This document shows, one piece after another, positions 33,933 through 58,855 of a stretch of DNA of 61,549 bases. The DNA lies in assembly GCA_041192345.1 (NCBI GenBank), contig JBEEND010000004.1, positions 1-61,549 of the forward strand, read 5' to 3'. The position numbers were made by a program, and so were the translations under genes. The notes under the pieces were generated by a model. It saw only the letters and a list, made by a program, of their open reading frames with translations, had not been told where the DNA came from and made no database searches. Each line of letters opens with the position of its first letter. Position 1 is the stretch's first letter. This stretch comes from Actinomycetota bacterium (GTDB lineage Bacteria > Actinomycetota > Actinomycetes > S36-B12 > UBA5976).

Positions 33933-35138
33933 CTAAATACTAAGAAGCTGCTTGCGGTACTTCATAATTTCTGAAGTCATTCCAATACCCACAGCCCCGA
34001 TAAGAATATCATTTCGGAAGTAAGCCATAACAAGCTCATCAGTTAATTCCCCAGCAACTAAGTCATATCGATCAGCACTTCCAGGCATGCCAAAACCTTG
34101 AATCTTCATGTCATATTGATCTGACCAAAAAGTTGGTAGCGGCGTGAAAGGCTGCGCTGCTAGTTCAGCAAAGTTATCTGCCTGGGACAAGTAAGCACTC
34201 AACACCGCACCTACTCGCTTTCCAGTTTCTGTGGGGATATTCCAGTGCTCAATTCTTCTTGGCTCATCATCAAAAAGCGGATTGGCGAACCTAGCTAGGT
34301 CTCCAACTACATAAACTCCTTCGACGGGATTCCCATCAGTGGTAACTGCTCGAAGGGCTGAATCAGTGAGTACTCCGTTAGAGATATCAAGATTTGTATT
34401 TGCTAGCCATTCGACATTGCAATGTGAACTAATAGCTTCAACCAATACGGTAGCTTCCAATAATTCACCGTCATCTAAAATTACGCCAGTGAGGGAATCA
34501 GTTCCAGCTAAATCCGTTATGCCATGGCCCAACCGAAAATGTACGCCATGAGATTCGTGTCGACGCTGTAGTTCAGCAGCAAGCGTTTCTCCAAGCGGAC
34601 GGATCATCGGGAAACTATCGATCGCAACATTTGTAACTTCGCAACCTAATCCTCTTGCGGTAGCTGCAACCTCGCAGCCAATGAAACCAGCGCCAGCTAC
34701 AACAACTTTGGCGCCGGGCACTAATTCGGCGCGTAGTCCAATTGCATCATCTAGGGTGCGAACTGTATGACGACCAGATAATTTTCCATTTGGCAGGTCA
34801 AGCACCCGTGGTCGTAAGCCGGATGCAATAACTAGCCCGTCATATTTAAAGGTTTTGCCGGAATTTGTTTCTACGACCCGTGTTTCTAAATCAACGGAAG
34901 TTGCTGGATCACCCAAATGCCAAATGACATCTTCGACTTGGGTACGCAACTTAAAGGCAACAGCATCGTGAGTTACTTCTTTAGCCAGCACCTCTTTTGA
35001 AAGTGGTGGGCGGTTGTACGGAGCGTGAATCTCCGCACCGATCACCGTAATCTGACCTTCGAAACCGCTATTGCGCAAAGCTTCAGCTGCCCGCAGGCCG
35101 CCCATTGAGGCCCCAACAATAACGACTGACTTTGGCAT
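33933..35138 (-). CDS. FAD/NAD(P)H ferredoxin reductase (putidaredoxin-reductase-like)
   Basis: Two dinucleotide folds: VVIVGASMGGLRAAEAL and VVVAGAGFIGCEVAA. 401 aa. Confidence 0.88.
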   Translation of the reverse strand: MPKSVVIVGASMGGLRAAEALRNSGFEGQITVIGAEIHAPYNRPPLSKEVLAKEVTHDAVAFKLRTQVEDVIWHLGDPATSVDLETRVVETNSGKTFKYDGLVIASGLRPRVLDLPNGKLSGRHTVRTLDDAIGLRAELVPGAKVVVAGAGFIGCEVAATARGLGCEVTNVAIDSFPMIRPLGETLAAELQRRHESHGVHFRLGHGITDLAGTDSLTGVILDDGELLEATVLVEAISSHCNVEWLANTNLDISNGVLTDSALRAVTTDGNPVEGVYVVGDLARFANPLFDDEPRRIEHWNIPTETGKRVGAVLSAYLSQADNFAELAAQPFTPLPTFWSDQYDMKIQGFGMPGSADRYDLVAGELTDELVMAYFRNDILIGAVGIGMTSEIMKYRKQLLSI

Positions 35139-35152
35139 GTAGAACGCGTCAG

Positions 35153-35344
35153 TTATTCAACAATGGAGATTGCCTGCATTGGGCAAACATCCACAGCGCT
35201 TTCGACATCGCTTCGGCGACTGTCATCAGCGGTAGCAACAAATTCCAGCTTGTCATTGTCATTCAACGCAAAAATGTCTGGCGCCTCGAAGACGCACTGT
35301 CCATAATGTTGGCACTTATCCATGTCGACATCGATGGTTATCAT
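35153..35344 (-). CDS. small ferredoxin (3-Cys, 3Fe-4S type)
   Basis: CQHYGQC...CP pattern. 63 aa. ATGA overlap with the upstream gene. Confidence 0.85.
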   Translation of the reverse strand: MITIDVDMDKCQHYGQCVFEAPDIFALNDNDKLEFVATADDSRRSDVESAVDVCPMQAISIVE

Positions 35345-36219
35345 TTCTTCTCCTCAACAGTTGATGGATATAGATCTTTGGATGGCGTTCGAATTCCGCG
35401 GAACTCCCAGTCACCACCTAAAGCGGTGGAAATTACTTCTTCACTTTCTGTTGGCTGGGCGCCTACATCAGTACGGATTGCAGTTGGCCCCGTGACGATT
35501 GTGTTAGTAAGTTTGCCAAGCCCTTCAACTTCTACTTCAACCACGTCACCTGGTTCAACGGGACGTGAATTAGCTGGAGTTCCAGAGAACAAAATGTCAC
35601 CAGGAACTAACGTGATCGTTCGGGCAATGTCAGCAACCAAGTAATGCATATCCCATTCCATGTTGCTGGTGTTGTCATCTTGCTTCACAACGCCATTAAC
35701 TAAAGTTCGTATCTGCTTCCCCCGGAAGTCCCAATCCGTAATCAAGCCAGGACCAACAGGCGCCAATGTGTCGCTGCCCTTAACCCGAAGCATTGAACCA
35801 GCATCGGTATCGCGGAAGTCATGAAGACCGTAATCATTTCCGATGGTGTAGCCAGCTATGTAATCCCCAGCTTCAGCCGGGCTGATGTTACGGCAAGTCT
35901 TGCCAATCACGATTACGATTTCGCCTTCGTAGTTCAACCATTTACAACCCTGCGGGCGAACAATTGACCCTAAATGACTATTCAGTGCAGTAATCGGCTT
36001 GTGAAAGTAAGTTGGTGCCGCTGGAAGTTTGGTCATGAACTCCTGAGTACGACTGTCGTAATTCAAATGAACCGCAATGATTTTTGTTGGCTCAGTTGGT
36101 GGCAAGTGAATTGCATCAGCAATAGCTACTTCTCTGCCATCTGGAGCAACCAGAGTTTCGCCATGGCGAAGTGCTTGAACTGCAAACCCATCAAGCAAGA
36201 TACGACGATACTCAGCCAC
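35341..36219 (-). CDS. fumarylacetoacetate-hydrolase-family enzyme (HpaG/HpcE-like isomerase/decarboxylase)
   Basis: ORF 35341..36360. GTG 36219 overlaps the upstream stop by 8 nt (GTGGCTGA). FAH-fold C-terminal region PGDILFSGTPAN...PGDVVEVEVEGLG. Confidence 0.82.
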   Translation of the reverse strand: MAEYRRILLDGFAVQALRHGETLVAPDGREVAIADAIHLPPTEPTKIIAVHLNYDSRTQEFMTKLPAAPTYFHKPITALNSHLGSIVRPQGCKWLNYEGEIVIVIGKTCRNISPAEAGDYIAGYTIGNDYGLHDFRDTDAGSMLRVKGSDTLAPVGPGLITDWDFRGKQIRTLVNGVVKQDDNTSNMEWDMHYLVADIARTITLVPGDILFSGTPANSRPVEPGDVVEVEVEGLGKLTNTIVTGPTAIRTDVGAQPTESEEVISTALGGDWEFRGIRTPSKDLYPSTVEEKK

Positions 36220-37120
36220 GTGACACCACTGGGTGTTTAACTGACGGGAAACCTTCAGCTGGTTTATCGAACCAAATGTGGACCTGGCCGGTACCAATCG
36301 AGTTTTCGTATTCTCCGTATTGGCGACCAGGCGCAGTGCAATCCGTCTCACCGAGCGCACCGTGCATCATCATGCCGTGTCCGTACCGAGCTTCTGGCTT
36401 GTACTTATGGAACTCAGCCATGGTGTTGAGCACTTTGGCATGTTCGCCAGCAAGGTACCAATCGATACGTTTTTCGTCGGCCGCGCGAGCTTCGGGTGTA
36501 TAAATCGAATTCAAGTCTGCTGACTCATGCTTGCGTAGTTCGCGCAGTGGCCAAAACGTATGTGACAAAGCACCAGAGGCAATTAGCAAAACTTTACGAT
36601 CCGAATTTGCGATTGCTTCCCCAACCGCGCGGCCCAACCGTAAGTTATCTTCGTCATCACCGGTTTGGCACATGCCAATACTGATCCAGTTTTTATCCAA
36701 GCCTTTTCCGAGATACATCCAGAGATTTAAAGTTGCGTAGAAAGTTGGCAGGTGAGCGTTGTCGATCGGGGTGATCCAAGTCCCATGCTTTTCACCAAGT
36801 GATGAAATTTCCTTAGCTAGCGCGGGGTCACCTTTCCAGTCATAAGGTACTGATGACATTCCTCGAGGCAGTTCTTCGCTGGTATAAAACCCCTCGCGCC
36901 GATCATGTGAGGTGACTACGAACTCAACTGTGGTTGCCCAATGCGAGTCAAAGACAATTACTGTGTCGTAATCGACTTTTTCAAATACGTCTTTACGCAG
37001 TTGTTCTAATCCTGCTACCAGTGTGAAGTCTTCACCGTTGTTGAGTTCTTTACGAATCTCAAGTGGCAAGACAATGGTAGGCACATGTGCCAATAGGCCA
37101 GCTCCAACAATTTCACCCAT
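36212..37120 (-). CDS. hpaD: LigB-superfamily extradiol dioxygenase, homoprotocatechuate 2,3-dioxygenase-like
   Basis: IVFDSHW, YTSEELP, SGALSH and GTGQV blocks are collinear with E. coli HpcB/HpaD as recalled. Confidence 0.8.
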   Translation of the reverse strand: MGEIVGAGLLAHVPTIVLPLEIRKELNNGEDFTLVAGLEQLRKDVFEKVDYDTVIVFDSHWATTVEFVVTSHDRREGFYTSEELPRGMSSVPYDWKGDPALAKEISSLGEKHGTWITPIDNAHLPTFYATLNLWMYLGKGLDKNWISIGMCQTGDDEDNLRLGRAVGEAIANSDRKVLLIASGALSHTFWPLRELRKHESADLNSIYTPEARAADEKRIDWYLAGEHAKVLNTMAEFHKYKPEARYGHGMMMHGALGETDCTAPGRQYGEYENSIGTGQVHIWFDKPAEGFPSVKHPVVSRG

Positions 37121-37123
37121 GAT

Positions 37124-38587
37124 TTATTCCTTCCAACCGTTAGGCGCAAAGACCGTGTTCTTTACGTCTGCATAAAAATCAAATGACCAGATTCCACCTT
37201 CGCGGCCGATACCTGATTTTTTAGATCCACCAAAAGGTGCACCAAGATCTCGTACGAAGAAACAGTTAACCCAAATCGTTCCAGCAACGAGCCGATTAGT
37301 GATTGCTTCAGCTCGCTTCTTGTTTCCACAAACGACCACTGCGGCTAACCCGAACTCAGTTCCGTTAGCCATATCAATTGCTTCTTCATCGGTGTCGAAT
37401 TGCTGCATACTGAGCACTGGTCCAAACACTTCTTGAGTTACGATTTCGCTGCCGACCATTGGATTATCAATCAAAGTCGGCATAAAGAAGTTGCCGCCCA
37501 ATTCTGCATTAGGGCCACCACCCATAACTATCGTTTGTCCTTCGGCTACTGCGCGGTCGACGAATCCCTTAACACGTGCAAAATGTTCTGGATGAATTTG
37601 CGGACCAATGTCAGTAGCTTCATCGCGCGGGTCACCCTGCTTGATTTGCTTGGCTCGTTCGATAAATGCGGCTTTGAACTTGTCCGCAATTCCACTTTGC
37701 ACCAAGAATCTAGTTCCAGATAAACAAACCTGACCGGCATTGTCATACTGTTCCACGGCAACCGTAACTGCGATATCCAAATCAGCATCGTCAGTGATGA
37801 TAAGCGGACTCTTGCCACCAAGCTCAAATGAACATGGCACTAGATTTTCTGCGGCAGCTTTAGCGACAAGTTTGGCGGTAGGTACTGAACCGGTAAATGA
37901 AATTCGGGACAAATCTGGATGCGTAGTTAGCGCCGCTCCAGCTTCTTCACCAAAACCTTGCACAACATTGAAAACTCCCGGTGGCATTCCTGCCTCCGCA
38001 GCTATGTCTGCAAGTAGCGAAGCAGTCAGAGGTGCCCACTCAGGTGGTTTTGCGACGACAGTGTCGCCAGCTGCAAGCGCCGGACCAATCCGCCAAGTTG
38101 CGAGCATAAGCGGGGCATTCCAGGGTGTGATGATTGCGGTAACACCGGCTGGGTCCCAAGTTACGTGATTGGTATGACCACGAGTTTCAAAATCAGGGTA
38201 ACTCAATTGATTCATCGCGTAGTCAGCAAAAAATCTAAAGTTCATGGCAACGCGAGGCATGACACCACGACGGTGCGAGCGAAGTAGCGAACCGTTGTCC
38301 GTGGTCTCAACGATTGCTAAGTCTTCAATTCTGGATTCGATAATGTCAGCAACCCGATTCAAAATTACGCCACGTTCAGTCGGAGACATTTGAGACCAAA
38401 TTGGAAAGGCAGCTTTTGCTGCAGCAACAGCTAAATCAACTTCCCGTTTGCCACCGCGGGAAATGTCTGCCAGAAAAGTGCCATCTATTGGTGAATAATC
38501 AGTGAATGTTGAATCAGAGGCAATCCGCTTGCCGCCGATGAAATGCCGAGTATCAACTTCAACCCCAGCAACTGTTGCCATTGTCAT
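37124..38587 (-). CDS. hpaE: aldehyde dehydrogenase, 5-carboxymethyl-2-hydroxymuconate-semialdehyde dehydrogenase-like
   Basis: 487 aa with FELGGKSP and GQVCLSG. First gene of the ALDH-dioxygenase-FAH-Fdx-FdR operon. Confidence 0.8.
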   Translation of the reverse strand: MTMATVAGVEVDTRHFIGGKRIASDSTFTDYSPIDGTFLADISRGGKREVDLAVAAAKAAFPIWSQMSPTERGVILNRVADIIESRIEDLAIVETTDNGSLLRSHRRGVMPRVAMNFRFFADYAMNQLSYPDFETRGHTNHVTWDPAGVTAIITPWNAPLMLATWRIGPALAAGDTVVAKPPEWAPLTASLLADIAAEAGMPPGVFNVVQGFGEEAGAALTTHPDLSRISFTGSVPTAKLVAKAAAENLVPCSFELGGKSPLIITDDADLDIAVTVAVEQYDNAGQVCLSGTRFLVQSGIADKFKAAFIERAKQIKQGDPRDEATDIGPQIHPEHFARVKGFVDRAVAEGQTIVMGGGPNAELGGNFFMPTLIDNPMVGSEIVTQEVFGPVLSMQQFDTDEEAIDMANGTEFGLAAVVVCGNKKRAEAITNRLVAGTIWVNCFFVRDLGAPFGGSKKSGIGREGGIWSFDFYADVKNTVFAPNGWKE

Positions 38588-38603: not shown

Positions 38604-38621
38604 TCGTTCGGGTACTAACGA
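38604..38621 (+). promoter_or_regulatory. operator-like motif, copy 1 (TCGTTCGGGTACTAACGA)
   Basis: TCGTT-N8-AACGA inverted repeat in the hpaE / puuD-like divergent region. Confidence 0.5.
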
Positions 38622-38688
38622 ATTACGATACGTTAAATTTAGTGATTTGGGAACCAAATTAAAGTAATTCTTTCATTAGGCTGGTGGC

Positions 38689-39369
38689 ATGTCGTTACGT
38701 CCAAAAATCGCACTAATAGGGCGGTTTACAAACTCTGCTTCTGCGCTTCGGTATGCCGGAGTCGTTAGTTCACGAACACTCCTGGAATCACTCTGGGATG
38801 CAGGCGCTGAACCGGTAACCCTGCTAGCAGCACCGGAAAGTGATTGGGAGCAAAGACTTCGAGGATATCAAGGCGTTTTACTTGCAGGTGGCGGTGATAT
38901 CAATCCCGCCAGATACGGTCGAGCACCGGATGTGAGCGTCTATGACGTGGATGATTTGCAAGATGAGACAGATTTTGGAATGACTGAGTATGTTCTGCAG
39001 CAGGGTATTCCAACTTTGGCAGTATGTCGAGGCTTGCACGTGGTAAATGTTGTTCGCGGCGGAACCCTGATCCAAGATATGCCAGTAAATCATCGACATG
39101 TTGTGCAGGAAGTAAAAGTTAGTGACTACGAATCATTTGGATTCACCACCGAGCTGGTAAAAACTTCTTGTTACCACCATCAGGCAATTGATAAAATTGG
39201 CACGGGATTAGAAGTGCTCGGACGCGGTCCAGATGGAACCATAGAAGCCGTTGGAATTGAATCAACTGGTTGGGCTCGCGGTGTGCAGTGGCACCCTGAA
39301 GATTCGGCGAAATCTGATCCAAACCAACACGGTTTATTTACCCGGTTAGTTAAAGAGGCAAGTGCTTAG
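38689..39369 (+). CDS. gamma-glutamyl-amide hydrolase (peptidase C26, PuuD-like class-I amidotransferase)
   Basis: Nucleophile LAVCRGLH and GVQWHPE. 226 aa. Confidence 0.82.
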   Translation: MSLRPKIALIGRFTNSASALRYAGVVSSRTLLESLWDAGAEPVTLLAAPESDWEQRLRGYQGVLLAGGGDINPARYGRAPDVSVYDVDDLQDETDFGMTEYVLQQGIPTLAVCRGLHVVNVVRGGTLIQDMPVNHRHVVQEVKVSDYESFGFTTELVKTSCYHHQAIDKIGTGLEVLGRGPDGTIEAVGIESTGWARGVQWHPEDSAKSDPNQHGLFTRLVKEASA

Positions 39370-39872
39370 AAAGTTTTTTGGGAATCTGCAGTAAGAGTGA
39401 CCGCTCTAAGCAGATCAGCAAATGAACCCAAATCAGATCGCTTTAAGTCAGCTACAGCTAGTTGCTCACCCTTATTAAATTCTGGAAATAGTTGCTTCAT
39501 CATTTTGCGACCTTTGGCAGTTAGCTTCACTAAAACTAAACGACCATCTTTTCTGCTGCGAGTTCGCGTTATGAGGCCGCGTCCTTCTAGGGTTTGCATC
39601 ACGCCTGTCAAAGTAGCCTTAGAAAACCCACCCTCTTCTGCAATGACTCGGGACTCAACTGGTTCCCAAATCCACACCACCCAAAGAACCACAAATGCAG
39701 TCCAAGATAAATCATGCTCCGCAAGTACCGTGCGCTCCAAGTAATTGCGGACTGAGTTTGCTGCTCGGAAAAGGTTAGAGGTAACTGCCATAGCCTCGAA
39801 ATCGATTTTCAGATCGCCGAGTCGCGCCTGAACTTGGCGTTCAGTTTCATCTAAAGTGTGCTGACCGGCCAT
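39366..39872 (-). CDS. MarR-family transcriptional regulator
   Basis: 168 aa with a winged-HTH core (ATLTGVMQTLEGRGLITRTRSRKDGR). GAGG RBS. Confidence 0.88.
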   Translation of the reverse strand: MAGQHTLDETERQVQARLGDLKIDFEAMAVTSNLFRAANSVRNYLERTVLAEHDLSWTAFVVLWVVWIWEPVESRVIAEEGGFSKATLTGVMQTLEGRGLITRTRSRKDGRLVLVKLTAKGRKMMKQLFPEFNKGEQLAVADLKRSDLGSFADLLRAVTLTADSQKTF

Positions 39873-39959
39873 GGAACCTCAATTTACTAGAACCTAGGCC
39901 AACGTTATCGGCTTTCTTGAAAATGATCGCAGTATGGGTCAGAATCAGGTATCTTAAAA

Positions 39960-39977
39960 CTGTTCGTACCCGAACGA
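39960..39977 (-). promoter_or_regulatory. operator-like motif, copy 2 (reverse complement TCGTTCGGGTACGAACAG)
   Basis: Lies between marR and the P450 gene. 15/18 identical to copy 1. Confidence 0.5.
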
Positions 39978-40005
39978 TTATTTCAACTTGGGGTGAGGTG
40001 AGTTA

Positions 40006-41256
40006 GTGTCAGCAACTACAGATGTCAGCTTGGCAAATCTAGATCTTTTCGAAGCACAAATTCCATGGCAAACTTTTGACGAGTTGCGTGCCAATAGTCC
40101 GGTGCACTGGAGCGACGAACCTGCTCCAAACTCGGGATTCTGGTCGCTTACTCGCTATCACGATATTGTTCGCGTGTTACGCGACACCGAAACTTATTCA
40201 AGCGAAAAAGGCACCGTAAATCTTGAGGAACTCGACGACGAGCAAATGGAAGCTCGTAAATCAATGATCGAGACAGATGGTATTCGTCATCGCGCGCTGC
40301 GTAAGTTGATGCAAGATTCATTCACACCCAAGGCAGTGGCGGGATATGAAACCTTTCTTCGGGGATTAACTGCCAGCACCCTTGATGATGCTTTTGCAAA
40401 GGGATCTTTTGACTTCGTTAAAGAAGTTGCCGCAGATTTCCCAATTCGGGTTTTGGCTCGACTTATGGATGTTCCCGACACGGACATTGACAAGTTGATC
40501 GCTTGGGGAAACCGAATGGTTGGAAACACCGACCCAGAACATGCTGATGTTTTGCTGGATTCACCAGAATCAGAAAAATACCGAATGTTGCCATTTCGTT
40601 CCCCTGCGGCCCTGGAAGTTTGGGCATATGGCGATGACTTAGCAAAGCAAAGACTGGGTGGCAAAGGTGTGGACATTGTTTCCACACTTATCAATCAAAC
40701 ACCAATTGATGGACTACCACTTTCCACTAGAGATTTTCATGCCTACTTCTTGCTGCTAATTGTTGCTGGAAACGAAACCACACGACACACAATTAGTCAC
40801 AGCATGAACTACTTGATTGATAACCCAGATCAATTGGCATTGATGCAGGAACGCCCAGAGTTAATTGAATGGGGTGTAGAAGAAATGCTTCGCATGGCCA
40901 GCCCGGTTTATCATTTCCGTCGTACTGCTGCGAAGGACGCTGAAATCAATGGTCAAGCAATCAAGGAAGGCGACAAAGTTGTCACTTGGTTTGCTGCTGG
41001 GAATCGTGATCCAGAAGTATTCAAAGATCCATACCGTATGGACGTGACGAGAAATCCAAACGAACATATGACATTTGGTCGAGGTGGGCCACATATGTGC
41101 TTAGGTAACTCGCTAGCCCGACTTGAAATAAAGATCATGTTCGAAGAATTGTTGCCAAGAATTTCTAACATCAAGCGAGTTGGCGAAGTAGAGCGGTTGC
41201 GTAGTAATTTCGTTAATGGCATAAAGCGTTTCCCGGTTGAGGTAACGCTTAAGTAG
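40006..41256 (+). CDS. cytochrome P450
   Basis: Heme loop FGRGGPHMCLGNSLAR and EXXR EEMLR. GTG start after GAGGTGAG. Confidence 0.92.
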   Translation: MSATTDVSLANLDLFEAQIPWQTFDELRANSPVHWSDEPAPNSGFWSLTRYHDIVRVLRDTETYSSEKGTVNLEELDDEQMEARKSMIETDGIRHRALRKLMQDSFTPKAVAGYETFLRGLTASTLDDAFAKGSFDFVKEVAADFPIRVLARLMDVPDTDIDKLIAWGNRMVGNTDPEHADVLLDSPESEKYRMLPFRSPAALEVWAYGDDLAKQRLGGKGVDIVSTLINQTPIDGLPLSTRDFHAYFLLLIVAGNETTRHTISHSMNYLIDNPDQLALMQERPELIEWGVEEMLRMASPVYHFRRTAAKDAEINGQAIKEGDKVVTWFAAGNRDPEVFKDPYRMDVTRNPNEHMTFGRGGPHMCLGNSLARLEIKIMFEELLPRISNIKRVGEVERLRSNFVNGIKRFPVEVTLK

Positions 41257-41964
41257 TTAAGTCAATTGAGCAATATCACGCAAGAACGCATCAACTAGCT
41301 GGTTGGTGCGTTCTTTTGCACTATTTTGCTCCGCAGCGGTGTGAGCAAGTAACACATCTGGATCTTGGCCATCTTTGATAACTAAGTCACGACCGCCATT
41401 ATTGAGCCAGCCAGTTAGCATTTCAACCGTCAACTCGGGATGAAATTGAACTCCCAAATTTCGTTCATTAGTAAATGCTTGACTTGCCGCAGAGTTTCGA
41501 GCTACTTCTAATGCAACCCCTGGTAGCTGCCAACGGTCATAGTGAAATTGAAACCACGGACCAGCAGAAACCAAATCTGGACGGTCGGTGTGAACAACTG
41601 TCCAACCAATTTCAGGCTTGGGTCCCGGAGCTACGCTGCCTCCTAGGGCTCGAGCAAGTAGTTGACCGCCAAAACAAATACCAAAGATGGGCACATCTTG
41701 TGCGATCGCATTGGTTAGGAATTCCAACTCAGGCGCGAGCCAGTTCCCTATGCGATCATCATCCCAAGCTCCCCATGGTGCGCCCATTGGGACAATTACG
41801 TCGTAGTTGGCAAGATTGGGGAATTCCCGAACGACGTTTGGTTCAGGGAAGTTTTCCTCAGGAACTACTAAAAACTCATCTACTTCAAAGCCATGATGGC
41901 GAAACCGCTCGGCCACGGGGCCAGGTGGGCTGACGTGGTCATGTGCAATTATGAGAACTCGCAT
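41257..41964 (-). CDS. class-I glutamine amidotransferase-like protein
   Basis: ORF to 41997. ATG 41964 lies 6 nt after GGAAAGAG. Nucleophile GICFGGQLLA and FHPE. Confidence 0.82.
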   Translation of the reverse strand: MRVLIIAHDHVSPPGPVAERFRHHGFEVDEFLVVPEENFPEPNVVREFPNLANYDVIVPMGAPWGAWDDDRIGNWLAPELEFLTNAIAQDVPIFGICFGGQLLARALGGSVAPGPKPEIGWTVVHTDRPDLVSAGPWFQFHYDRWQLPGVALEVARNSAASQAFTNERNLGVQFHPELTVEMLTGWLNNGGRDLVIKDGQDPDVLLAHTAAEQNSAKERTNQLVDAFLRDIAQLT

Positions 41965-42037
41965 GGCCATCTCTTTCCGGGTCAGAATTTCTACCATTCT
42001 GCCCTAAAAAGTTCTCGAAGCGATTAAAATAAAAAAA

Positions 42038-42055
42038 TCGTTCATACCCTAACGA
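42038..42055 (-). promoter_or_regulatory. operator-like motif, copy 3 (reverse complement TCGTTAGGGTATGAACGA)
   Basis: Lies in the GATase / GS-like divergent region. 15/18 identical to copy 1. Confidence 0.5.
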
Positions 42056-42069
42056 CTTTTGGAGGAAAC

Positions 42070-43416
42070 ATGTCTCTTGATCTTTCTGCACTTCGCGCCC
42101 AACTGCAGAGTGAGAACATTGATATATTGCGACTCGTTTACGCCGATGTACTGGGTATTCCTCGCTCTAAAGATTTAGTTGTTAGCCAAATGGAAAAGGC
42201 TGCCGCACACGGGCCAGCTTTTTGCCAAGGGGTTTGGGTTACCACTACCCGTGGCGGTGTTTTGGATGGTCATGGCAGCATTTCGTCTGGACTATCCGAC
42301 TTCGTCAGTCGAATAGATCCAAACACCATTCGTAAACTTCCGTGGGAACCAGGAGTTGCATATGCAATCGTGGATGCGTTTGAGCCAAATGGTGATGATA
42401 ATCCGGTCGCACCCCGCACTGCTCTAATGCGCGTAATAAAGGAATACGAAAAACTCGGATTGACACCAGTTATCGGACCAGAGCTTGAGTTCTACTTAGC
42501 TAAACAAGAAGACAACCAATGGGTACGAGCACTCCATCGAACTGGTCGGGTTTACACAACTGGAGCCATCGTTGATCCAGATGGCACTTTCTTATATATG
42601 TTGCGCATGTTAGATCAAATGGCAATTGGCGTCTTTGCAGGTAATCATGAGTTTGCCCCGGCCCAATACGAAATCAATTTGTGGCACGGCGAGGCCTTGG
42701 AATCTACGGACCGAACTTTCTTGTTCAAAACTGCGATTAAAGACATCGCAGTGCGCCGGGGTTACAACGCCACTTTCCTAGGAAAGCCTTGGGCTGAGTC
42801 TGAAGGCAGTGGTTTCCATTTGCACTTCTCAGTTGTGGATGCCAAGGGCAAGAATCAAATGCATAATGGCGAAGAGCTATCCGAAATAGCAAATCAAATG
42901 ATTGCTGGAATCCTGAGCCATGCAAATGCGCTCACTGCATTTACCAACCCAACAATCAATGCGTTTAAGCGTCTGGGTCCAGATACTTTGGCCCCAAGTC
43001 GTGCGAACTGGGGTTATGACAACCGGGCCACTTTGCTCCGTGTGCCACCAGAGCGTGGCGAAGGCACGCGCCTTGAGATTCGAATTGGTGATGGCGCAGC
43101 CAACCCATACTTAATGGTTGCTTCAGTCTTAGCTGCCGGCCTAGATGGAATTAAACAGAAAATGAAGCCTAACAAAGCTGCGGAAGGTTGGGCTTATGAA
43201 GATGAAGCAGATCCTTTGCTTCCACTTACATTCACTGCAGCATTAGATGCCCTTGATGCGGATCCACTCTTTGCAGTTCTGATGGGACCAGTAGTGGTTT
43301 CAACTCACTTAACTTTGAAGCGCGATGAAATTGAACGCTACGAAGCAGAGGTTCCGGACCCAAGTACTCGCGAAATTACGTCTTGGGAACTGGATGAATA
43401 TATTTGGGACTACTAG
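42070..43416 (+). CDS. glutamine-synthetase-family ligase (gamma-glutamyl-amine synthetase-like)
   Basis: Contains GPELEFYL, NHEFAPAQYEINL and GSGFHLHFS. 448 aa. GGAGG RBS. Confidence 0.85.
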   Translation: MSLDLSALRAQLQSENIDILRLVYADVLGIPRSKDLVVSQMEKAAAHGPAFCQGVWVTTTRGGVLDGHGSISSGLSDFVSRIDPNTIRKLPWEPGVAYAIVDAFEPNGDDNPVAPRTALMRVIKEYEKLGLTPVIGPELEFYLAKQEDNQWVRALHRTGRVYTTGAIVDPDGTFLYMLRMLDQMAIGVFAGNHEFAPAQYEINLWHGEALESTDRTFLFKTAIKDIAVRRGYNATFLGKPWAESEGSGFHLHFSVVDAKGKNQMHNGEELSEIANQMIAGILSHANALTAFTNPTINAFKRLGPDTLAPSRANWGYDNRATLLRVPPERGEGTRLEIRIGDGAANPYLMVASVLAAGLDGIKQKMKPNKAAEGWAYEDEADPLLPLTFTAALDALDADPLFAVLMGPVVVSTHLTLKRDEIERYEAEVPDPSTREITSWELDEYIWDY

Positions 43417-44222
43417 ATCGGCTTTGAACGGTCAGCAATTAATTTGCCGCCTGCGAAAGTAACTCCAACTTCGCGGTAATAGCCACCAAGTATTTTTTCA
43501 ACGGGAAGTATCGAAGCTAGTTCATCCCATTGCGAATCACCAAGGACTAGTTCAGCATCGCCCTTCCAAGCTTGACCAAGGTCTGCATCGATGCCATGCA
43601 TTGTTATTAATTGATCCATAGATAGGCCGGCATCTTTTGTGATTGAAGGCATGAAGCGGCTATGCAACATCGCATGACCGTTTACAAATCCGTTGGTTTC
43701 AGATGGTTCGCGAAGCGTTACTACTGCGGATGCAAGTCTGTGATCGTAAGCAGACAAAGTTGCGCCAAGCTTGGCGCCAGCCTCTAGGCGAGGGGATGCT
43801 TTGCCACGATTAAAAATTCGGGTGACATGTGCTGAGCCAATTTTCTTTGGATAACCCTGGTACCAACCACGAGCAACTGCGAAATCTTTAGTCACCCAAA
43901 TTGCTACACAGCGGCTGTAAGTAACGCCTTCATAAGCACAGCGCACTACTGCAAAAGTTTCCAGGTACTGCGAGCGAATCGGATCTAGTAGCTCAGCACC
44001 ACCTTCACTGCAGGATTGCCAATCTGCCCAAATCAAAGCAACAGCGCCAGGCTGGTCTGGGGCTAGATCGATATCTGGTGGCAGGATCGCGCGAACATTC
44101 GCAGGATCAGTTAAGTACTCGACAGTTAGCAAAGTACCGCTGTAGTACCAGGGCATTTGCGGAATAATTCCACTTTTGCCGCTTGGAGTAAGTGGGGGCA
44201 TAAATCCATGTAGTTCAGACAT
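43413..44222 (-). CDS. acetoacetate-decarboxylase-family protein
   Basis: 269 aa. The N-terminal MPPLTPSGKS...PWYY and overall pattern resemble the ADC (PF06314) family as recalled. Confidence 0.6.
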   Translation of the reverse strand: MSELHGFMPPLTPSGKSGIIPQMPWYYSGTLLTVEYLTDPANVRAILPPDIDLAPDQPGAVALIWADWQSCSEGGAELLDPIRSQYLETFAVVRCAYEGVTYSRCVAIWVTKDFAVARGWYQGYPKKIGSAHVTRIFNRGKASPRLEAGAKLGATLSAYDHRLASAVVTLREPSETNGFVNGHAMLHSRFMPSITKDAGLSMDQLITMHGIDADLGQAWKGDAELVLGDSQWDELASILPVEKILGGYYREVGVTFAGGKLIADRSKPI

Positions 44223-44245
44223 GCGTCTAGCGTAGTACGAAATAT

Positions 44246-44263
44246 TCGTTAGGGCACAAAAGA
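44246..44263 (+). promoter_or_regulatory. operator-like motif, degenerate copy 4 (TCGTTAGGGCACAAAAGA)
   Basis: 15/18 match to the consensus. Lies between ferredoxin 2 and the ADC-family gene. Confidence 0.35.
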
Positions 44264-44267
44264 TTAA

Positions 44268-44459
44268 TCAGTTAGTTATGGAGATTGCCTGCATTGGGCA
44301 AAGGTCAGCAGCAGCTAGCGCGAACTTTTCGTTTTCAGGGGTGACCCCCACGGCCAATATTTGGGCCACGCCGGATTCGCCCAGCTCAAATACTTCTGGA
44401 GCTTCGTGAACGCATTGCGCGTAACCTTGGCATTTACCAAGGTCTACTTTGATGTCCAT
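44268..44459 (-). CDS. small ferredoxin (3-Cys type), paralog of 35153..35344
   Basis: ORF to 44501. ATG 44459 is preceded by GAGAGAGG. CQGYAQC...CP pattern. The shared C-terminus CPMQAISI matches the other ferredoxin. Confidence 0.85.
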   Translation of the reverse strand: MDIKVDLGKCQGYAQCVHEAPEVFELGESGVAQILAVGVTPENEKFALAAADLCPMQAISITN

Positions 44460-44547: not shown

Positions 44548-45702
44548 ATGGATTTGAAGACAAGTGTGGGTCACGAAGATTTACGTTCTGCTATTGCAGC
44601 ATTGTGTGCAGATTTTCCAGGGGAGTACTGGCGCTCGTTAGAGCCAGATAAGTATCCAGACGCTTTTGTTGAAACGCTTACTAAGAATGGCTGGCTTTCC
44701 GTTTTGATTCCCGAAGAATATGGCGGCGGCGGCGCCTCGCTTACTGAGGCTTCGATAATTTTGGAAGAGATTTCCGTGTCAGGTGGAAACCCAAGTGCTT
44801 GCCATGCCCAGATGTACGTCATGGGAACTTTGTTGCGTCATGGTAGCGAAGCTCAAAAGCAGCAATATCTGCCGAAGATTGCGGCTGGCGAATTACGACT
44901 CCAAGCTTTTGGCGTAACTGAGCCAAGTGCCGGATCTGAAACAACCAAGATTCGCACTAAGGCAGAGCGCGTCGAAGGTGGTTGGAAAATCAATGGTCAA
45001 AAAATCTGGACCTCCAGGGCCCTGCAATCCGATTTAATGTTGCTATTGGCGCGTACCTCACCGTTTGATGAATCTGGAAAACCTTCTGCTGGTATGTCTG
45101 TGTTCATTTTTGATATGAGAAATCTTGAAGGATTAACTATTCGCCCTATCAAAACCATGATGAATCACAACACCACTGAAGTTTTTTTTGACAATGTAAT
45201 TATTCCTGAAGATTCACTAATTGGCGAAGAGGGACGAGGATTCAAATACATTTTGGACGGCATGAATGCCGAACGAATTTTGATCGCGGCTGAGTGCATT
45301 GGTGATGGTCGATTCTTTCTTGAACGCGCTGTGGCGTATGCCAATAGCCGAGAAATTTTCGGTGGCCCAATCGGCAAGAATCAAGGCGTGCAATTTCCGT
45401 TAGCTCGTTCCTACATGCAACTTCGAGCTGCCGATTTAGTTAGGTTTGACGCCGCCGCTCGCTTTGACGCTGGCGAAGATTGTGGCGCACAAGCAAACAC
45501 TGCGAAGTTCTTAGCAGCTGAAGCATCCTGGGCTGCTGGAAATGCTGCGATCGATACTCATGGCGGAATGGGATTCGCGGAAGAGTACGACATTGAGCGC
45601 AAGTTCCGTGAAACTAGGCTTTACCAAGTTGCCCCAATTAATAACAACTTGATTATGGCCTACATCGGACAGCACGTTCTGGGCATGCCAAAGTCTTATT
45701 AA
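44548..45702 (+). CDS. acyl-CoA dehydrogenase family protein
   Basis: 384 aa with ACAD three-domain layout. Contains GVTEPSAGSE and GGMGFAEEYDIERKFRE. Confidence 0.88.
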   Translation: MDLKTSVGHEDLRSAIAALCADFPGEYWRSLEPDKYPDAFVETLTKNGWLSVLIPEEYGGGGASLTEASIILEEISVSGGNPSACHAQMYVMGTLLRHGSEAQKQQYLPKIAAGELRLQAFGVTEPSAGSETTKIRTKAERVEGGWKINGQKIWTSRALQSDLMLLLARTSPFDESGKPSAGMSVFIFDMRNLEGLTIRPIKTMMNHNTTEVFFDNVIIPEDSLIGEEGRGFKYILDGMNAERILIAAECIGDGRFFLERAVAYANSREIFGGPIGKNQGVQFPLARSYMQLRAADLVRFDAAARFDAGEDCGAQANTAKFLAAEASWAAGNAAIDTHGGMGFAEEYDIERKFRETRLYQVAPINNNLIMAYIGQHVLGMPKSY

Positions 45703-46397
45703 TACCTTTTGGCGGTTACATATTCTGAAATAAACCAGTCGACCAAGACTTCACAGTTTTGTGCAGTCTCATCAGAAATTGCGTTTAACTCAGACATCAA
45801 TATCTCAGTGGTCATCCCTGTTGGTAAATAGTTAGCTCCACCGATGTCTAACCAGGCTTGAACTAAGTCAGTCGTAGCTTCAGGATGAAACTGGAGACCG
45901 ACTGCAGTTTTGTGCCGGAAGGCTTGCACAGCCGATGGTGTCTCGGCCATAACTTCGATGTGTTCGGGCAGGATCATCCGATCACTGTGCCAAGAAAACC
46001 AAGGACCTTCCGGAAACGGTAAACCGAGTGAGGTTTCCTTTATGTGCAGTTCACCAAGTTCAAGTTCATCAGATTTTTCAACATGGCCACCCACTGCTTT
46101 CGCCAACACTTGGCCACCGAAGCAAACACCAAGAAATGGAATTTCCTGATCAAAAGTGAGATTTATCAATGCTTCTTCAGCATCTACCCAAGTGGCGACC
46201 TCGGGATCATATGCACTGTAGAAAGAACCAAATGAAATTATGAAATCAAATTCAGATGGATCAGGAAAATTCAAGTTCAGTTCGCCATCTTCGCCAAGGA
46301 TTACATGACGTTGCGTTTCGATACCGCGTGACTTGAGAATGTCACCAATTACACCTGGCCGGCCCGCTTCTTCATGACTAATTAACAAAGTACGCAT
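45699..46397 (-). CDS. class-I glutamine amidotransferase-like protein
   Basis: Nucleophile GVCFGGQVLA and QFHPE. Lies immediately downstream of a GS-like gene. Confidence 0.82.
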   Translation of the reverse strand: MRTLLISHEEAGRPGVIGDILKSRGIETQRHVILGEDGELNLNFPDPSEFDFIISFGSFYSAYDPEVATWVDAEEALINLTFDQEIPFLGVCFGGQVLAKAVGGHVEKSDELELGELHIKETSLGLPFPEGPWFSWHSDRMILPEHIEVMAETPSAVQAFRHKTAVGLQFHPEATTDLVQAWLDIGGANYLPTGMTTEILMSELNAISDETAQNCEVLVDWFISEYVTAKRY

Positions 46398-46400
46398 GAT

Positions 46401-47723
46401 CTAAATTATCTCCCGATAACGCGCTAGTTCCCAGTCTGTAACTTGCGACGCAAACGTTGCTAATTCGACACGCTGGACGGCAGCCCACATATCTACAAAC
46501 GCATCACTAAATGCACGTCGAGCAAATGCACTCGTCTCCCAGTTGTCGATCGCTTCAGCTGGATGATTTGGAAGCCGATCCCATTTATCTTCAGGGTGTG
46601 GGTCTCCGGTTACCATTTGTGGCAGTGGCAAGTCGTTCGTAAGTCCTTCATAGCCTGCAGCTAGCGCGCCGTTTAGAACTAAGTAAGGATGTGCATCCGC
46701 AGCAGCCCAACGCCATTCAATGCGATTTGAACTCTTTGCGCCATTAATGCAACGAACTCCAACTAAGCGATTATCCAGCCCCCAAGTAACTTGCGTTGGT
46801 GAGAAACTGTAATCCACTAATCGCTTGTAGCCATTAATGGTTGGAGTGTTAACTACCTGTAAATCTTTAGTGTAGGCCATCAATCCAGTAAGGTACTTTT
46901 CCATCAATGCGGAATCAAGTACACCTTTTCCGTCAGTTGCATCAAAAGCATTCTTGCCATCTTTTGTAACCAAACTTTGATGCACGTGCATACCGCAACC
47001 GGACTCACCCAGAATTGGTTTGGCCATGAAGCTCGCAACTAAACCATGTTTTTGGGCAACCAAACGAACGATGTATTTGTACAGGACGGTGTCATCAGCC
47101 ATTTTCATGGCCTCGCTGTAACGCAAGTTGATTTCGATTTGCGATGGACCGTATTCAACATTGCTGGCCTCAACCAACATGCCAGTCTTTCTCAAGGCTT
47201 CACGAATTTCAAGAATTATTGGTTCTAGCTCGGCGCCTTTATTGATTCCGTAACACTGTAGTGAAGTGAACAACGGTGTGCCGTCTGGATTGAAAAGATA
47301 AAACTCAAGCTCAGTTGCGGCATTCACTGAGTAACCCAAATCAGCAAACTTCTTTAAAGTTGTTTTCAGCATCTGCCTTGGGTCAATATCTACCGGTTGA
47401 TGAGTATCGGCTGTGTAGGTATCGCATATCACAACACCGATACCTTCAGCCCAACCAGCGACTCGGAACGAACTCAAGTCTGGTTGCACGTGAATGTCTT
47501 TCACTTCTTGAACAGGGGTTACTTCAATTTCACAACGTGGTTGCCAAGTGTGCACAACATTTGCGATTCCATATCCTTCATTGCGCAAGAACTGCTCAGT
47601 GGGTAGTCGCTTGCCACGCGGGACACCCCAGTTGTCGACAATTATGCATTCGACGGTGTGAATGTTGTGTTTTTCGCATAAGTCTGCGACGCGCTTTAGA
47701 TCTGCGGATTGAGTTTGCGACAC
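46401..47723 (-). CDS. glutamine-synthetase-family ligase (gamma-glutamyl-amine synthetase-like), second copy
   Basis: ORF to 47735 (TTG). GTG 47723 lies 5 nt after GGGGGA. Contains ATELEFYLF, GPSQIEINLRY and GCGMHVHQS. Confidence 0.85.
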   Translation of the reverse strand: MSQTQSADLKRVADLCEKHNIHTVECIIVDNWGVPRGKRLPTEQFLRNEGYGIANVVHTWQPRCEIEVTPVQEVKDIHVQPDLSSFRVAGWAEGIGVVICDTYTADTHQPVDIDPRQMLKTTLKKFADLGYSVNAATELEFYLFNPDGTPLFTSLQCYGINKGAELEPIILEIREALRKTGMLVEASNVEYGPSQIEINLRYSEAMKMADDTVLYKYIVRLVAQKHGLVASFMAKPILGESGCGMHVHQSLVTKDGKNAFDATDGKGVLDSALMEKYLTGLMAYTKDLQVVNTPTINGYKRLVDYSFSPTQVTWGLDNRLVGVRCINGAKSSNRIEWRWAAADAHPYLVLNGALAAGYEGLTNDLPLPQMVTGDPHPEDKWDRLPNHPAEAIDNWETSAFARRAFSDAFVDMWAAVQRVELATFASQVTDWELARYREII

Positions 47724-47843
47724 GAATTCCCCCAAAGTCAGGTTTTAGATATTTCTTAAGGGTAATGTGCCTTGAAACTGAATGTACGTGATTTCGCTTC
47801 GAAATAGATTTGATTCGGAAGCAAACGAAAGGTAGGCCTGCCA

Positions 47844-48800
47844 GTGAAAGCCGTAGTTTTGAGTGGTGTGGGAGCAACGCTTGAGTATTTGGACTACCCA
47901 GACCCGAATCCAAGTGGATCCGAAACCGTGATTGATGTGACGGCATGTGGCGTCTGCCATTCAGATTTACACGTGGTTGAAGGTATTTACCCAAGCCCGC
48001 TGCCAATGGTCATGGGACATGAGGTGGTCGGGGTTCATGTCGAACTAGGTCCGGTAATGGTTTACCCATGCTGGGGATGCCTGAAGGCTGATTGCTGGGC
48101 CTGCTCAAGTGGGCAGGAAATGATTTGCCCAAACGCGACCGAAGCGGGCCTTTTTCGCAACGGCGGCTATGCCGAGAAAATGCTAATCAAAAACAAGTCG
48201 TACCTAGTTCCACTTGGCGACTTGGATCCTCTATCTGCTGCACCACTAGCCTGCGGGGGGCTTACTGCTTATCGCGCAGTCAGTCATGTCTTGCCAAACT
48301 TAACTGAGAAAAGCCGCGTACTAGTTATTGGTGCTGGTGGACTTGGACAGTTTGGAATTCAATTCTTAAAAATTCAATCAGATGCCAAAGTGATTGCAGC
48401 TGATTTGTCGAGTGACAAACTTGAGCGCGCACTGGCTGTTGGCGCAGATGAAGTTGCCAGCCCGACAGAGCTAGATGGAACTTTTGATGCGATTATTGAC
48501 TTCGTTGGCGCCCAGAACACACTTGAATTAGCGGCCAAGCAAATTGCACGTCAAGGCACAGCTGTTTTAGTTGGAATTTTTGGTGGCAAGATCCCATTTG
48601 GCTTTGGTGCCGTGCCGCATGAAGCACGTTTCATGACAAGCATTTGGGGAACGCAAGGACAACTAGGTGAGTTATTGGCTCTAGCGAACAAATATGAATT
48701 GAAACATTCCGTTGAAGCAATACCCCTAGCTCGCGCTCAAGAAGCACACGAAAGACTTATTGCCGGCACAGTCGCTGGTCGGATTGCTTTAGTTCCTTAA
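47844..48800 (+). CDS. zinc-dependent alcohol dehydrogenase
   Basis: GVCHSDLH and GAGGLGQFG motifs. GTG start. Confidence 0.88.
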   Translation: MKAVVLSGVGATLEYLDYPDPNPSGSETVIDVTACGVCHSDLHVVEGIYPSPLPMVMGHEVVGVHVELGPVMVYPCWGCLKADCWACSSGQEMICPNATEAGLFRNGGYAEKMLIKNKSYLVPLGDLDPLSAAPLACGGLTAYRAVSHVLPNLTEKSRVLVIGAGGLGQFGIQFLKIQSDAKVIAADLSSDKLERALAVGADEVASPTELDGTFDAIIDFVGAQNTLELAAKQIARQGTAVLVGIFGGKIPFGFGAVPHEARFMTSIWGTQGQLGELLALANKYELKHSVEAIPLARAQEAHERLIAGTVAGRIALVP

Positions 48801-48820
48801 AGAAAATTTTGGAGATTCAA

Positions 48821-50065
48821 ATGACCATCACTGAAGCTATCAACATCGTTGATCCCGCAATTTACGAACAAGGGATTCCACATGAAACATTTAGTTGGAT
48901 GCGACACAATGCTCCCGTTTATCGGCACGAATATGCAGATGGCGATTTTTGGGCGGTAACTAGGTACAACGACATAATCCAAGTAACCAGGGACTGGGAA
49001 ACTTTTTCATCTGCAAAGAAAATGGTAAATCTTTGGGATCTGTCAGACGAAGCAATGCAGGCTAGACGTTCAATTATTGAAAGTGATCCACCTATCCATG
49101 CCCGATTGCGCAAACTTGCAATGCCACCATTCACTTTGCGCAAAGTAGCTGATTATGAGGCAGCAACTCGTAAGATTGCATCGACACTTCTGGATGCTGC
49201 GCTTGAAAACTCAAACGTAGATCTTGTTACTGCGATTTCATCTCCGCTGCCAATTCAAGTAATCGTAAACATTCTTGGCGTACCGAGTGAAGACACTGAC
49301 TACATGGTTGAGCTCAGTGATCACTTAGTTGAGGGAACAACAGGTGAGCCGCTGGTACCGGATGCTTATGGAAATAAAACTCCACTCGAACTTTTGCCAT
49401 TCAATAGCCCGGCAGCATTCGCACTCTTTGAATACGGACGCAAACTAGGCGATGAAAGACGAGCTAATCCGCATGAAGATGTCGTCAGTACTTTGGTGCA
49501 CTCACAAGTTGATGGTGAACATTTATCCGAAACGGAGTTCGCAAATTTTTTCCAAGTACTTGTTTTTGCTGGGAATGAAACTACGCGCACCGCGATTTCA
49601 AATGGTCTGCATGCATTTATGGATAATCCAGATCAGCTAGAAAAGTTTTACGACAACCCAGATTTACTTGAAAACGCAGTCGAAGAAATCATCCGGTATG
49701 CCACCCCAGTTCTACATTTTCGCCGCACGGCCACTAAGGACACCGAGATAGATGGCCACCCAATTGCGGCCGGGGACAAGGTTGTGATGTGGTACGCCTC
49801 ATCGAACTTTGATGAAGAATTTTTTGAAAACCCCTTAAAATTCGATGTTTCACGTCCGACACGCCCAAAACACTTGGCTTTTGGTGCCCAGGGCCCCCAT
49901 CACTGCATTGGAGCCTCATTAGCACGCCTGGAAATAAAGATTTTGTTGGAAGAAATGCGAAAAAGACGGATTTTTTTGGAAAGAACTGGAAATATCGTTA
50001 GGACCCGTTCGAATTTCGTGAATGGGGTGTTAAGTCTTCCAGCCCGCGTTAAGCAGGGTGGATAA
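48821..50065 (+). CDS. cytochrome P450
   Basis: ORF from 48809. GGAG lies 6 nt before ATG 48821. Heme loop FGAQGPHHCIGASLAR. Paralogous to the P450 at 40006. Confidence 0.92.
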   Translation: MTITEAINIVDPAIYEQGIPHETFSWMRHNAPVYRHEYADGDFWAVTRYNDIIQVTRDWETFSSAKKMVNLWDLSDEAMQARRSIIESDPPIHARLRKLAMPPFTLRKVADYEAATRKIASTLLDAALENSNVDLVTAISSPLPIQVIVNILGVPSEDTDYMVELSDHLVEGTTGEPLVPDAYGNKTPLELLPFNSPAAFALFEYGRKLGDERRANPHEDVVSTLVHSQVDGEHLSETEFANFFQVLVFAGNETTRTAISNGLHAFMDNPDQLEKFYDNPDLLENAVEEIIRYATPVLHFRRTATKDTEIDGHPIAAGDKVVMWYASSNFDEEFFENPLKFDVSRPTRPKHLAFGAQGPHHCIGASLARLEIKILLEEMRKRRIFLERTGNIVRTRSNFVNGVLSLPARVKQGG

Positions 50066-50131
50066 GCAAGACAAGTTGTTGGCATCGCGCAAACAATGCA
50101 AGACGCAATTGAAGGACTCTAGGAGGAGCTC

Positions 50132-58617: not shown

Positions 58618-58855
58618 CCAGTTCTTTTGAGCTAATAAGAAAAAGTCAAAAAGTTGTTCGCAGGCGAACAAAATGAAACTGGGTATGCAATAGCCAGTTC
58701 TTTTGAGCCTATAAGAAAAAGTCGAAAAGTTGTTCGCAGGCGAACAAAATGAAACTGGGTATGCAATAACCAGTTCTTTTGAGCTAATAAGAAAAAGTCG
58801 AAAAGTTGTTCGCAGGCGAACAAAATGAAACTGGGTATGCAATAGCCAGTTCTTT
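58601..58855. repeat. 76-bp tandem repeat, about 3.35 copies, beginning inside the proC stop region
   Basis: Units start at 58601, 58677, 58753 and 58829. Each carries hairpins gaactgg/ccagttc and ttgttcg-cagg-cgaacaa. Variants alternate in an A-B-A-B pattern. Confidence 0.95.

Follow-up and report, generated by a model that had tools for sequence, protein, structure and literature searches.

A conserved 18-bp palindrome as the putative operator of a MarR-family regulator in an actinobacterial gene island for amine and aromatic catabolism

An 18-bp palindromic element recurs in the promoter regions of a gene island on contig JBEEND010000004.1 of an Actinomycetota bacterium (assembly GCA_041192345.1); the whole 61,549-nucleotide stretch analysed here is referred to as the window. 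Comparison across genomes suggests that the copies of this element are very probably protein operators, and that the MarR-family regulator encoded within the island (39366–39872, minus strand) is quite probably the protein that binds them. The operator groups glutamine synthetase (GS)-like ligases, amidotransferase-type hydrolases, cytochrome P450 and ferredoxin genes, an extradiol dioxygenase operon, and a permease as one co-regulated unit, apparently a catabolic amine/aromatic regulon that is both undescribed and widespread.

Sites and architecture of the element

Four copies of the element had been picked out in a preliminary description of this DNA, and all four were located exactly at the coordinates and on the strands given there. 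Site 1 (38604–38621, plus strand; TCGTTCGGGTACTAACGA) lies in the divergent region between the genes for an aldehyde dehydrogenase (ALDH; hpaE-like) and a peptidase of family C26, 17 nt from the ATG of the former and 68 nt from that of the latter. Site 2 (39960–39977, minus strand; TCGTTCGGGTACGAACAG, reading CTGTTCGTACCCGAACGA on the plus strand) lies between the divergent genes for MarR and the first cytochrome P450 (P450a), 88 nt from the MarR ATG and 29 nt from the P450a GTG, and is the putative autoregulatory site. Site 3 (42038–42055, minus strand; TCGTTAGGGTATGAACGA, or TCGTTCATACCCTAACGA on the plus strand) occupies the divergent region between a glutamine amidotransferase-like gene, GATase(b), and the ligase gene GS-like(a), 15 nt from the ATG of GS-like(a). 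Site 4 (44246–44263, plus strand; TCGTTAGGGCACAAAAGA), the weakest of the four, had been placed upstream of an ADC-family gene; this stands with one refinement, namely that the site is positioned between the stop codon of a ferredoxin gene (ferredoxin-2) and the start of the ADC-family gene, 24 nt from the ADC ATG, with both genes on the same strand. The three divergent gaps, of about 100–135 bp, hold a single site each. The idea that short intergenic regions account for the single site per gap was rejected, as gaps of 100 bp elsewhere carry two sites.

Two further candidates lie in the same island. Site 5 (49995–50012; TCGTTAGGACCCGTTCGA) falls within the last codons of a second P450 gene (P450b), 120 nt 5′ of the ATG of an amino-acid permease gene, and site 6 (47811–47828; TGATTCGGAAGCAAACGA), a weak candidate, lies in the divergent region between GS-like(b) and a zinc-dependent alcohol dehydrogenase (ADH) gene, 15 nt 5′ of the ADH GTG. 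The island thus probably contains six sites instead of four, and the two additions would bring the ADH–P450b–permease unit under the same operator.

Across 106 distinct sites, the operator consensus is an 18-bp palindrome of 8-2-8 form, TCGTTCGG-RY-CCGAACGA, in which T4/A15 is invariant and both G3/C16 and G7/C12 are 94%–98% conserved. Its form, palindromic and within the range of about 16–20 bp, is typical of an operator for a dimeric protein. An A is favoured directly before the palindrome and a T directly after it, and A/T flanks of this kind fit the minor-groove contacts usual for the wings of MarR proteins. Perfect copies of the palindrome are found in relatives (for example, TCGTTCGGATCCGAACGA), together with near-perfect ones such as ACGTTCGGACCCGAACGA. 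The window sites are eroded palindromes, each with a good gene-proximal half, CC(G/T)AACGA, and a weaker distal half that always carries T for G at position 8; read toward the nearest gene, sites 1–4 share an identical polarity, ...T(A/G)CCC(G/T)AACGA. The preliminary description had seen TCGTT/AACGA half-sites around an asymmetric core, GGGTA, and this part of it gives way to the 8-2-8 palindrome: the supposed core consists of inner half-site bases plus the 2-nt centre, and owes its appearance to the T at position 8 of the distal half. The ancestral operator is read as the 18-bp palindrome, of which each site in the genus retains one good half beside the nearest gene.

Rarity in the window and the genome

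The pattern of the preliminary description, with up to three mismatches allowed, has five matches in the 61.5-kb window against 0.14 expected (100 shuffles, none of which reached five), a comparison that is partly circular because the pattern was derived from the sites themselves; the fifth match is the candidate at 49995–50012. The genome is a 1.69-Mb draft in 62 contigs, of which the window is one, and in the whole of it the same pattern has only seven matches, five of them at 38.6–50.0 kb of the window. With so few matches, and most of them in the island, the motif is not a dispersed genomic repeat but belongs to the island.

An independent weight matrix was built from 20 palindromes next to MarR orthologues at four distant loci, without any sequence from the window. 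In a scan of the whole genome, this matrix ranked site 2 first (18.7 bits) and site 1 second (17.5 bits); site 5 scored 14.1, site 3 11.0, site 6 9.0, and site 4 8.5 bits. Sites of at least 16 bits number five in 1.69 Mb, and the remaining high-scoring matches of the matrix scan lie in coding sequence or at duplicated contig ends, none of them at a promoter. One of these matches, judged by eye, resembles a tRNA T-arm. A different and perfect palindrome, TTGTTCGCAGGCGAACAA, present in three copies at 58654–58823 with 76-bp spacing in a tandem repeat after proC, reaches 13.9 bits with the operator matrix; it was set aside as probably unrelated to the regulon because just two further genomes of the genus have it, in a single copy each and away from promoters. 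Its copies probably form a terminator-like hairpin.

Conservation within the genus

Of 36 genomes sampled from the same genus, 13 encode an orthologue of the MarR protein, and sites 1–4 recur at orthologous positions in 10 sister genomes, where alignments show them to be the best-conserved blocks of each intergenic region. Seventeen of 18 positions are invariant at site 1 (11 genomes) and likewise at site 3 (9 genomes), and site 2 is also conserved. At site 4, the CCCTAACGA half is conserved, with better copies, such as TCATTCGTACCCTAACGA, in sister genomes. The sole change within site 5 over six genomes falls in the 2-nt centre, with variation at synonymous positions nearby; site 6 exists in a better version (TAATTTGGAACCTAACGA) in three sister loci and has been lost in one.

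The palindrome also follows the regulator from genome to genome. MarR-positive genomes of the genus contain 8.3 matches on average (up to three mismatches), compared with 2.6 in MarR-negative genomes (Mann–Whitney p = 5e-7), and a reversed control pattern shows no difference between these two groups. Every genome of the genus with the ADC marker gene also has MarR. These distributions indicate that the regulator, its targets, and the motif come and go as a set and that the motif serves nothing else.

Within the genus, no part of the regulon varies as much as the ADC promoter region. At loci L023 and L025 (sister genomes G014 and G031), other sequence replaces the ferredoxin-2 gene beside site 4; here, site 4 is stronger (TCATTCGTACCCTAACGA), and an additional site, TCGTTCGTATCCGTTCGA, lies 126 bp away.

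Conservation in other families

MarR orthologues at 45%–55% identity occur in other families of the order, and a search with a MarR alignment returned more than 571 relatives in public genomes. The counts that follow are from the best 80 loci of these relatives, 898 kb in total, which come from freshwater metagenome-assembled genomes (MAGs; labelled Candidatus Nanopelagicales or Actinomycetota), Rhodoluna, Microbacteriaceae, Salinibacterium, Leifsonia, Actinomadura, Spirillospora, and Streptomyces. One of them, L038 (CAMBGF010000018.1), carries a 98%-identical MarR together with the island; its record is titled Bifidobacterium breve and looks like a mislabelled freshwater actinobacterial MAG.

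In the distant families, gene order is kept and near-perfect palindromes occupy the matching promoter gaps: between the FAH–LigB–ALDH genes and C26, between MarR and P450, between GATase and GS-like, upstream of ADC, and between P450 and permease. The GATase/GS-like gap contains two full palindromes in these families; at distant locus L032 a site lies upstream of ADC, and at L033 two palindromes precede the permease gene. In these 898 kb, 181 sites score at least 16 bits; 67 of them lie no more than 250 bp upstream of the MarR start, with the remainder at discrete distances that match the other promoter gaps. MarR has a divergent neighbour at 62 loci, and at 58 of these the gap between the two genes contains one or two sites scoring 11 bits or more. 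The genes that most often accompany MarR are P450a (71 of 80 loci) and ALDH (65), followed by LigB, GS-like(a), GATase(b), and C26 (54 each), FAH (50), ADC (49), and the reductase and permease (32 each).

The MarR protein as the proposed binder

The regulator encoded at 39366–39872 is a protein of 168 amino acids that matches PF01047 at 44.8 bits (cutoff 24.6) and also exceeds the cutoffs of PF12802 and PF13463, as expected of a winged helix-turn-helix protein; 35 solved MarR structures match it at E < 1e-3. Its subfamily is marked by the sequence WVVLWVVWIW and by a recognition helix, SK(A/G)TL(T/S)GV, that is near-invariant among orthologues, paralleling the invariant T4/A15 and the conserved G3/C16 of the operator. 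The gene adjoins its proposed targets and has a candidate site in its own promoter region, a layout of the autoregulatory type. Among the gene families present in at least 15 of the 80 loci, there is no regulator family other than MarR: the others are enzymes, the permease, a luciferase-like monooxygenase, and unmatched open reading frames (ORFs), and those unmatched families that were inspected and scanned look like shadow ORFs of high-GC DNA.

A genome-wide matrix scan and phylogenetic footprinting had both been called for in the preliminary description. In the former, the window sites 2 and 1 are the top two and the motif has no similar frequency across the genome; in the latter, the sites are kept upstream of orthologous genes within the genus and in other families. 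The suggestion made there of a shared operator, with MarR as candidate binder and autoregulator, is thus supported as far as comparative tests can reach (gap conservation, MarR-linked motif counts, and a sole conserved regulator), and every comparative test run agrees with the proposal that the regulon would tie the meta-cleavage operon to the gamma-glutamyl modules.

A further difference separates two groups among the orthologues at loci L038–L117. For those with the helix SKGTLTGV (Actinomadura, Spirillospora, and relatives), about 29% of half-sites carry A at operator position 5 (TCGTACGG), compared with about 2% for those with SKATL(T/S)GV. This may be protein–DNA co-variation; it is confounded by phylogeny and hence was not used as evidence.

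Promoter geometry and proposed mechanism

The centres of the sites lie 23.5 nt before the start codon of GS-like(a), 24.5 nt before that of ADH, 26 nt before ALDH, 32.5 nt before ADC, and 37.5 nt before P450a, so that each site would coincide at least in part with the −10 element, the transcription start, or the beginning of the transcript. A Shine–Dalgarno sequence (GGAGG, GGGGA, GAGGTGAG) lies 3′ of each site, which would put the transcription start within or just upstream of the site. An activator site at these positions would require a promoter that starts inside the coding sequence, and MarR is therefore read as a repressor, a role that is likely at the proximal promoters. By eye only, −10-like hexamers (TATCGT, TATCTT, and TAAAAT) can be seen adjoining the sites.

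In the proposed mechanism, a homodimeric winged-helix repressor, most likely the product of 39366–39872, would use the sites as operators. Without inducer, MarR dimers would occupy one site per promoter gap, and a bound dimer would stop RNA polymerase either by occluding the −10/start region or by blocking early elongation. As there is a single site in each divergent gap, one dimer may serve both promoters, and the site 88 nt before the MarR gene would confer autorepression. A pathway substrate or intermediate would then bind MarR and cause its release—an aromatic amine, its gamma-glutamyl derivative, or a catechol acid, these candidates being taken only from the gene content. The analogous cases of PcaV and HpaR, discussed below, lead one to expect that a pathway compound relieves repression in this way.

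Alternative explanations

That the dyads act in RNA instead, as hairpins of the 5′ untranslated region followed by a U-rich tract and serving as attenuators or ribosome-binding-site masks before ALDH, P450a, GS-like, and ADC, would fit the common orientation of sites 1–4, all of which lie 15–29 nt before the nearest start codon and are followed by a T-rich tract. Site 2 is, moreover, terminator-like in a simple scan, and the ACCC of sites 1 and 2 can pair with GGGG of the Shine–Dalgarno region. The four leader folds, however, are no stabler than shuffles (z from −0.74 to +0.31), with the dyad in the best fold only at site 3, and the 230 departures from the consensus pair among the 106 distinct sites comprise 165 that break complementarity, 52 that leave at best a G-U pair, and just 13 that are compensated. 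The palindromes of relatives also occur in both orientations, serving both genes of divergent pairs, and it is bases rather than pairings that are conserved from Nanopelagicales-type MAGs to Actinomadura. An RNA hairpin or attenuator was accordingly rejected on fold stability and compensatory change and is hardly credible; conserved base identity with rare compensation points to sequence readout by a protein.

If a protein reads the sites, it is unlikely to be a regulator encoded outside the island, with MarR recognising some other sequence. The ALDH/C26 gap does contain a second invariant palindrome, ATTTGG-GAA-CCAAAT (38645–38659), to which no binder has been assigned, a point in favour of such a reading. 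The 18-bp motif, though, is at no other regulatory position in the genome, comes and goes with the island within the genus, and immediately precedes the MarR gene at 58 of 62 loci from very distant lineages; no other regulator family is conserved nearby, and an outside regulator dedicated to an accessory island would be unusual. It is less likely still that MarR binds but activates, or acts both ways, at promoters such as those of C26a, MarR, and GATase(b), which are 50–105 nt from the sites. Yersinia HpaR offers a precedent, as this protein represses hpa but, bound at a distal site, activates T6SS4 (PMC7180172), and contigs from lake metatranscriptomes cover ALDH, P450a, GS-like, and ADC but not C26a or MarR, so the two sides of a gap may differ. 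Contig coverage, however, measures expression poorly; site centres 23–26 nt from the ALDH, GS-like(a), and ADH starts leave no room for a downstream promoter; and most characterised MarR regulators of catabolism are repressors (PMC3616709).

Several points nevertheless weigh against repression of the island by its own MarR through these sites. The 80 loci were collected via MarR, and MarR is hence present in them by construction, leaving only the co-location of the motif as informative; co-occurrence itself leaves some room for a regulator whose gene lies elsewhere and accompanies the island. Measured against the family consensus, sites 3, 4, and 6 are weak (11.0, 8.5, and 9.0 bits, respectively), and the conservation of site 5 is confounded by its position inside coding sequence. 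In a simple scan for sigma-70 and terminator consensus sequences, promoter-like sites were no more frequent than in shuffles, and the site-to-promoter geometry thus rests on distance to start codons.

Target genes and the proposed pathway

The genes for ALDH, a LigB-type extradiol dioxygenase, an FAH-family enzyme, ferredoxin-1 (35153–35344), and a ferredoxin reductase lie together on the minus strand (33933–38587) and were assigned from Pfam and NCBIfam matches. Divergent from ALDH is the peptidase C26 gene, encoding a PuuD-like gamma-glutamyl hydrolase (38689–39369, plus strand). Beyond MarR follow P450a (40006–41256, plus strand), with site 2 29 nt upstream; GATase(b), a class-I glutamine amidotransferase-like protein (41257–41997, minus strand); GS-like(a), a ligase of the gamma-glutamyl-amine synthetase type (42070–43416, plus strand), with site 3 15 nt upstream; and the ADC/MppR-family enzyme (43413–44222, minus strand). 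Ferredoxin-2, of 63 amino acids (44268–44459, minus strand), lies upstream of ADC on the same strand and was absent from the earlier gene list. It is followed by an acyl-CoA dehydrogenase (44548–45702, plus strand), by GATase-like(c) and GS-like(b) (45699–47735, minus strand), and by Zn-ADH, P450b, and the amino-acid permease (47844–51646, plus strand), a probable target unit with candidate site 6 before ADH and candidate site 5 before the permease.

The two ferredoxin genes, both of 63 codons (MITIDVDMDKCQHYGQC... and MDIKVDLGKCQGYAQC...), lie one after the FAH gene and one before the ADC gene, and their products are likely redox partners of the island P450s. Both genes are shorter than usual ORF length cutoffs. 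The true start of GATase(b) is probably the ATG at 41964, rather than the ATG at 41997 of the longest ORF, as the CAT at 41995–41997 is TAT in four sister genomes and 41968–41994 is not conserved. A conserved inverted repeat, CAGAAT-N7-ATTCTG (41983–42001), would fall in the 5′ leader of GATase(b) if translation starts at 41964. The second palindrome of the ALDH/C26 gap, 30 nt upstream of the peptidase-C26 ATG, is nearly invariant in 11 of 11 genus genomes. Its arms resemble the inner half-sites of the operator (TTTGG/CCAAA), with a 3-nt spacer and the outer CG missing; it occurs once in the window, where loose matches number 4 against 3.0 expected.

In four lake metatranscriptomes, assembled contigs at 90%–99% identity include sequence from ALDH, P450a, GATase(b), GS-like(a), ADC, ferredoxin-2, and the acyl-CoA dehydrogenase; C26 and MarR (38869–39936) are left uncovered by these contigs, whose coverage is a poor measure of expression. 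The island is thus transcribed in nature, at least in close relatives, although assembled contigs of this kind cannot place transcript starts.

The MarR/operator pair may delimit all the genes of a catabolic route that has not been described before and is widespread among Actinomycetota of fresh water and soil. Along this route, the GS-like ligase would gamma-glutamylate an aromatic amine, which a P450 with its own ferredoxin and reductase would hydroxylate; hydrolases of the C26/GATase type would then remove the glutamyl group, and a meta-cleavage branch of the LigB/ALDH/FAH/ADC type would degrade the product. Within the genus, the same operator would also have recruited a second module, consisting of GS-like(b), GATase(c), ADH, P450b, and the permease. 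Taken as a whole, with the route steps and the second module included, this reading is put forward tentatively, its chances being slightly less than even.

Freshwater actinobacteria that are abundant and mostly uncultured carry the unit, as do cultivable Actinomadura, Spirillospora, and Microbacteriaceae. The site model provides a precise annotation marker of the regulon in MAGs, and MarR with its operator could serve in a ligand-release assay to identify the substrate of the pathway. If the reading is true, operator mapping would be the quickest way to the gene list of the pathway, to its inducer, and hence to its substrate.

Comparison with known systems

In the open-access literature, neither the operator nor a gamma-glutamyl/P450/extradiol cluster under MarR control was found described, and the half-site strings, searched for in open-access full text, occurred only in primers and unrelated DNA.

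PcaV of Streptomyces coelicolor is a MarR repressor of protocatechuate catabolism, encoded divergently from the catabolic operon and induced by an aromatic pathway compound (PMC3616709). Of its two palindromic 20-bp operators, one lies 10 bp past the transcription start and the other precedes pcaV; the dissociation constants are 4.6 and 11.9 nM, and a perfect palindrome is bound more tightly than an imperfect one (PMC3616709). The window MarR resembles it in being an actinobacterial MarR divergent from catabolic genes, with palindromic operators in the shared intergenic region, and the PcaV structure (PDB 4fht) is among its best structural relatives (E = 4e-9). Sequence similarity between the two proteins is low, however, and the PcaV operator, TCAG-N4-CTGA, is unrelated to TCGTTCGG-RY-CCGAACGA; moreover, PcaV controls one operon, whereas four to six promoter gaps over 12–17 kb are involved here.

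HpaR represses the homoprotocatechuate hpa-meta operon in E. coli W and Yersinia pseudotuberculosis, with one site overlapping the −10 element (PMC7180172; PDB 7el2/7el3). The operon that it controls is a meta-cleavage operon with HpaD/E/G-type enzymes, comparable with the LigB–ALDH–FAH operon of the island, and HpaR is the best NCBIfam match of the window MarR (TIGR02337, E = 1.6e-14). Assignment of the window protein as an HpaR equivalog was rejected, its 53.8 bits falling well below the cutoff of 121.2. The HpaR operator, TTAA-N4-TTAA within 15 bp (PMC7180172), is unrelated to the window palindrome, and HpaR has no control of gamma-glutamyl or P450 genes.

On the gamma-glutamyl side, EpuRI (SCO1614) represses the gamma-glutamylethanolamide synthetase gene glnA4 of S. 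coelicolor; its family and operator are not stated in that account (PMC6529630). The likeness lies in a local repressor beside the gene for a GS-like gamma-glutamyl-amine ligase, switching an amine-glutamylation pathway. PuuR of E. coli is likewise a local repressor beside such a ligase gene. Neither the EpuRI nor the PuuR regulon is known to include P450 or ring-cleavage genes. Set beside these systems, the regulatory logic of the island is ordinary—a local MarR repressor, palindromic operators, and autoregulation—and its value lies in what the operator delimits.

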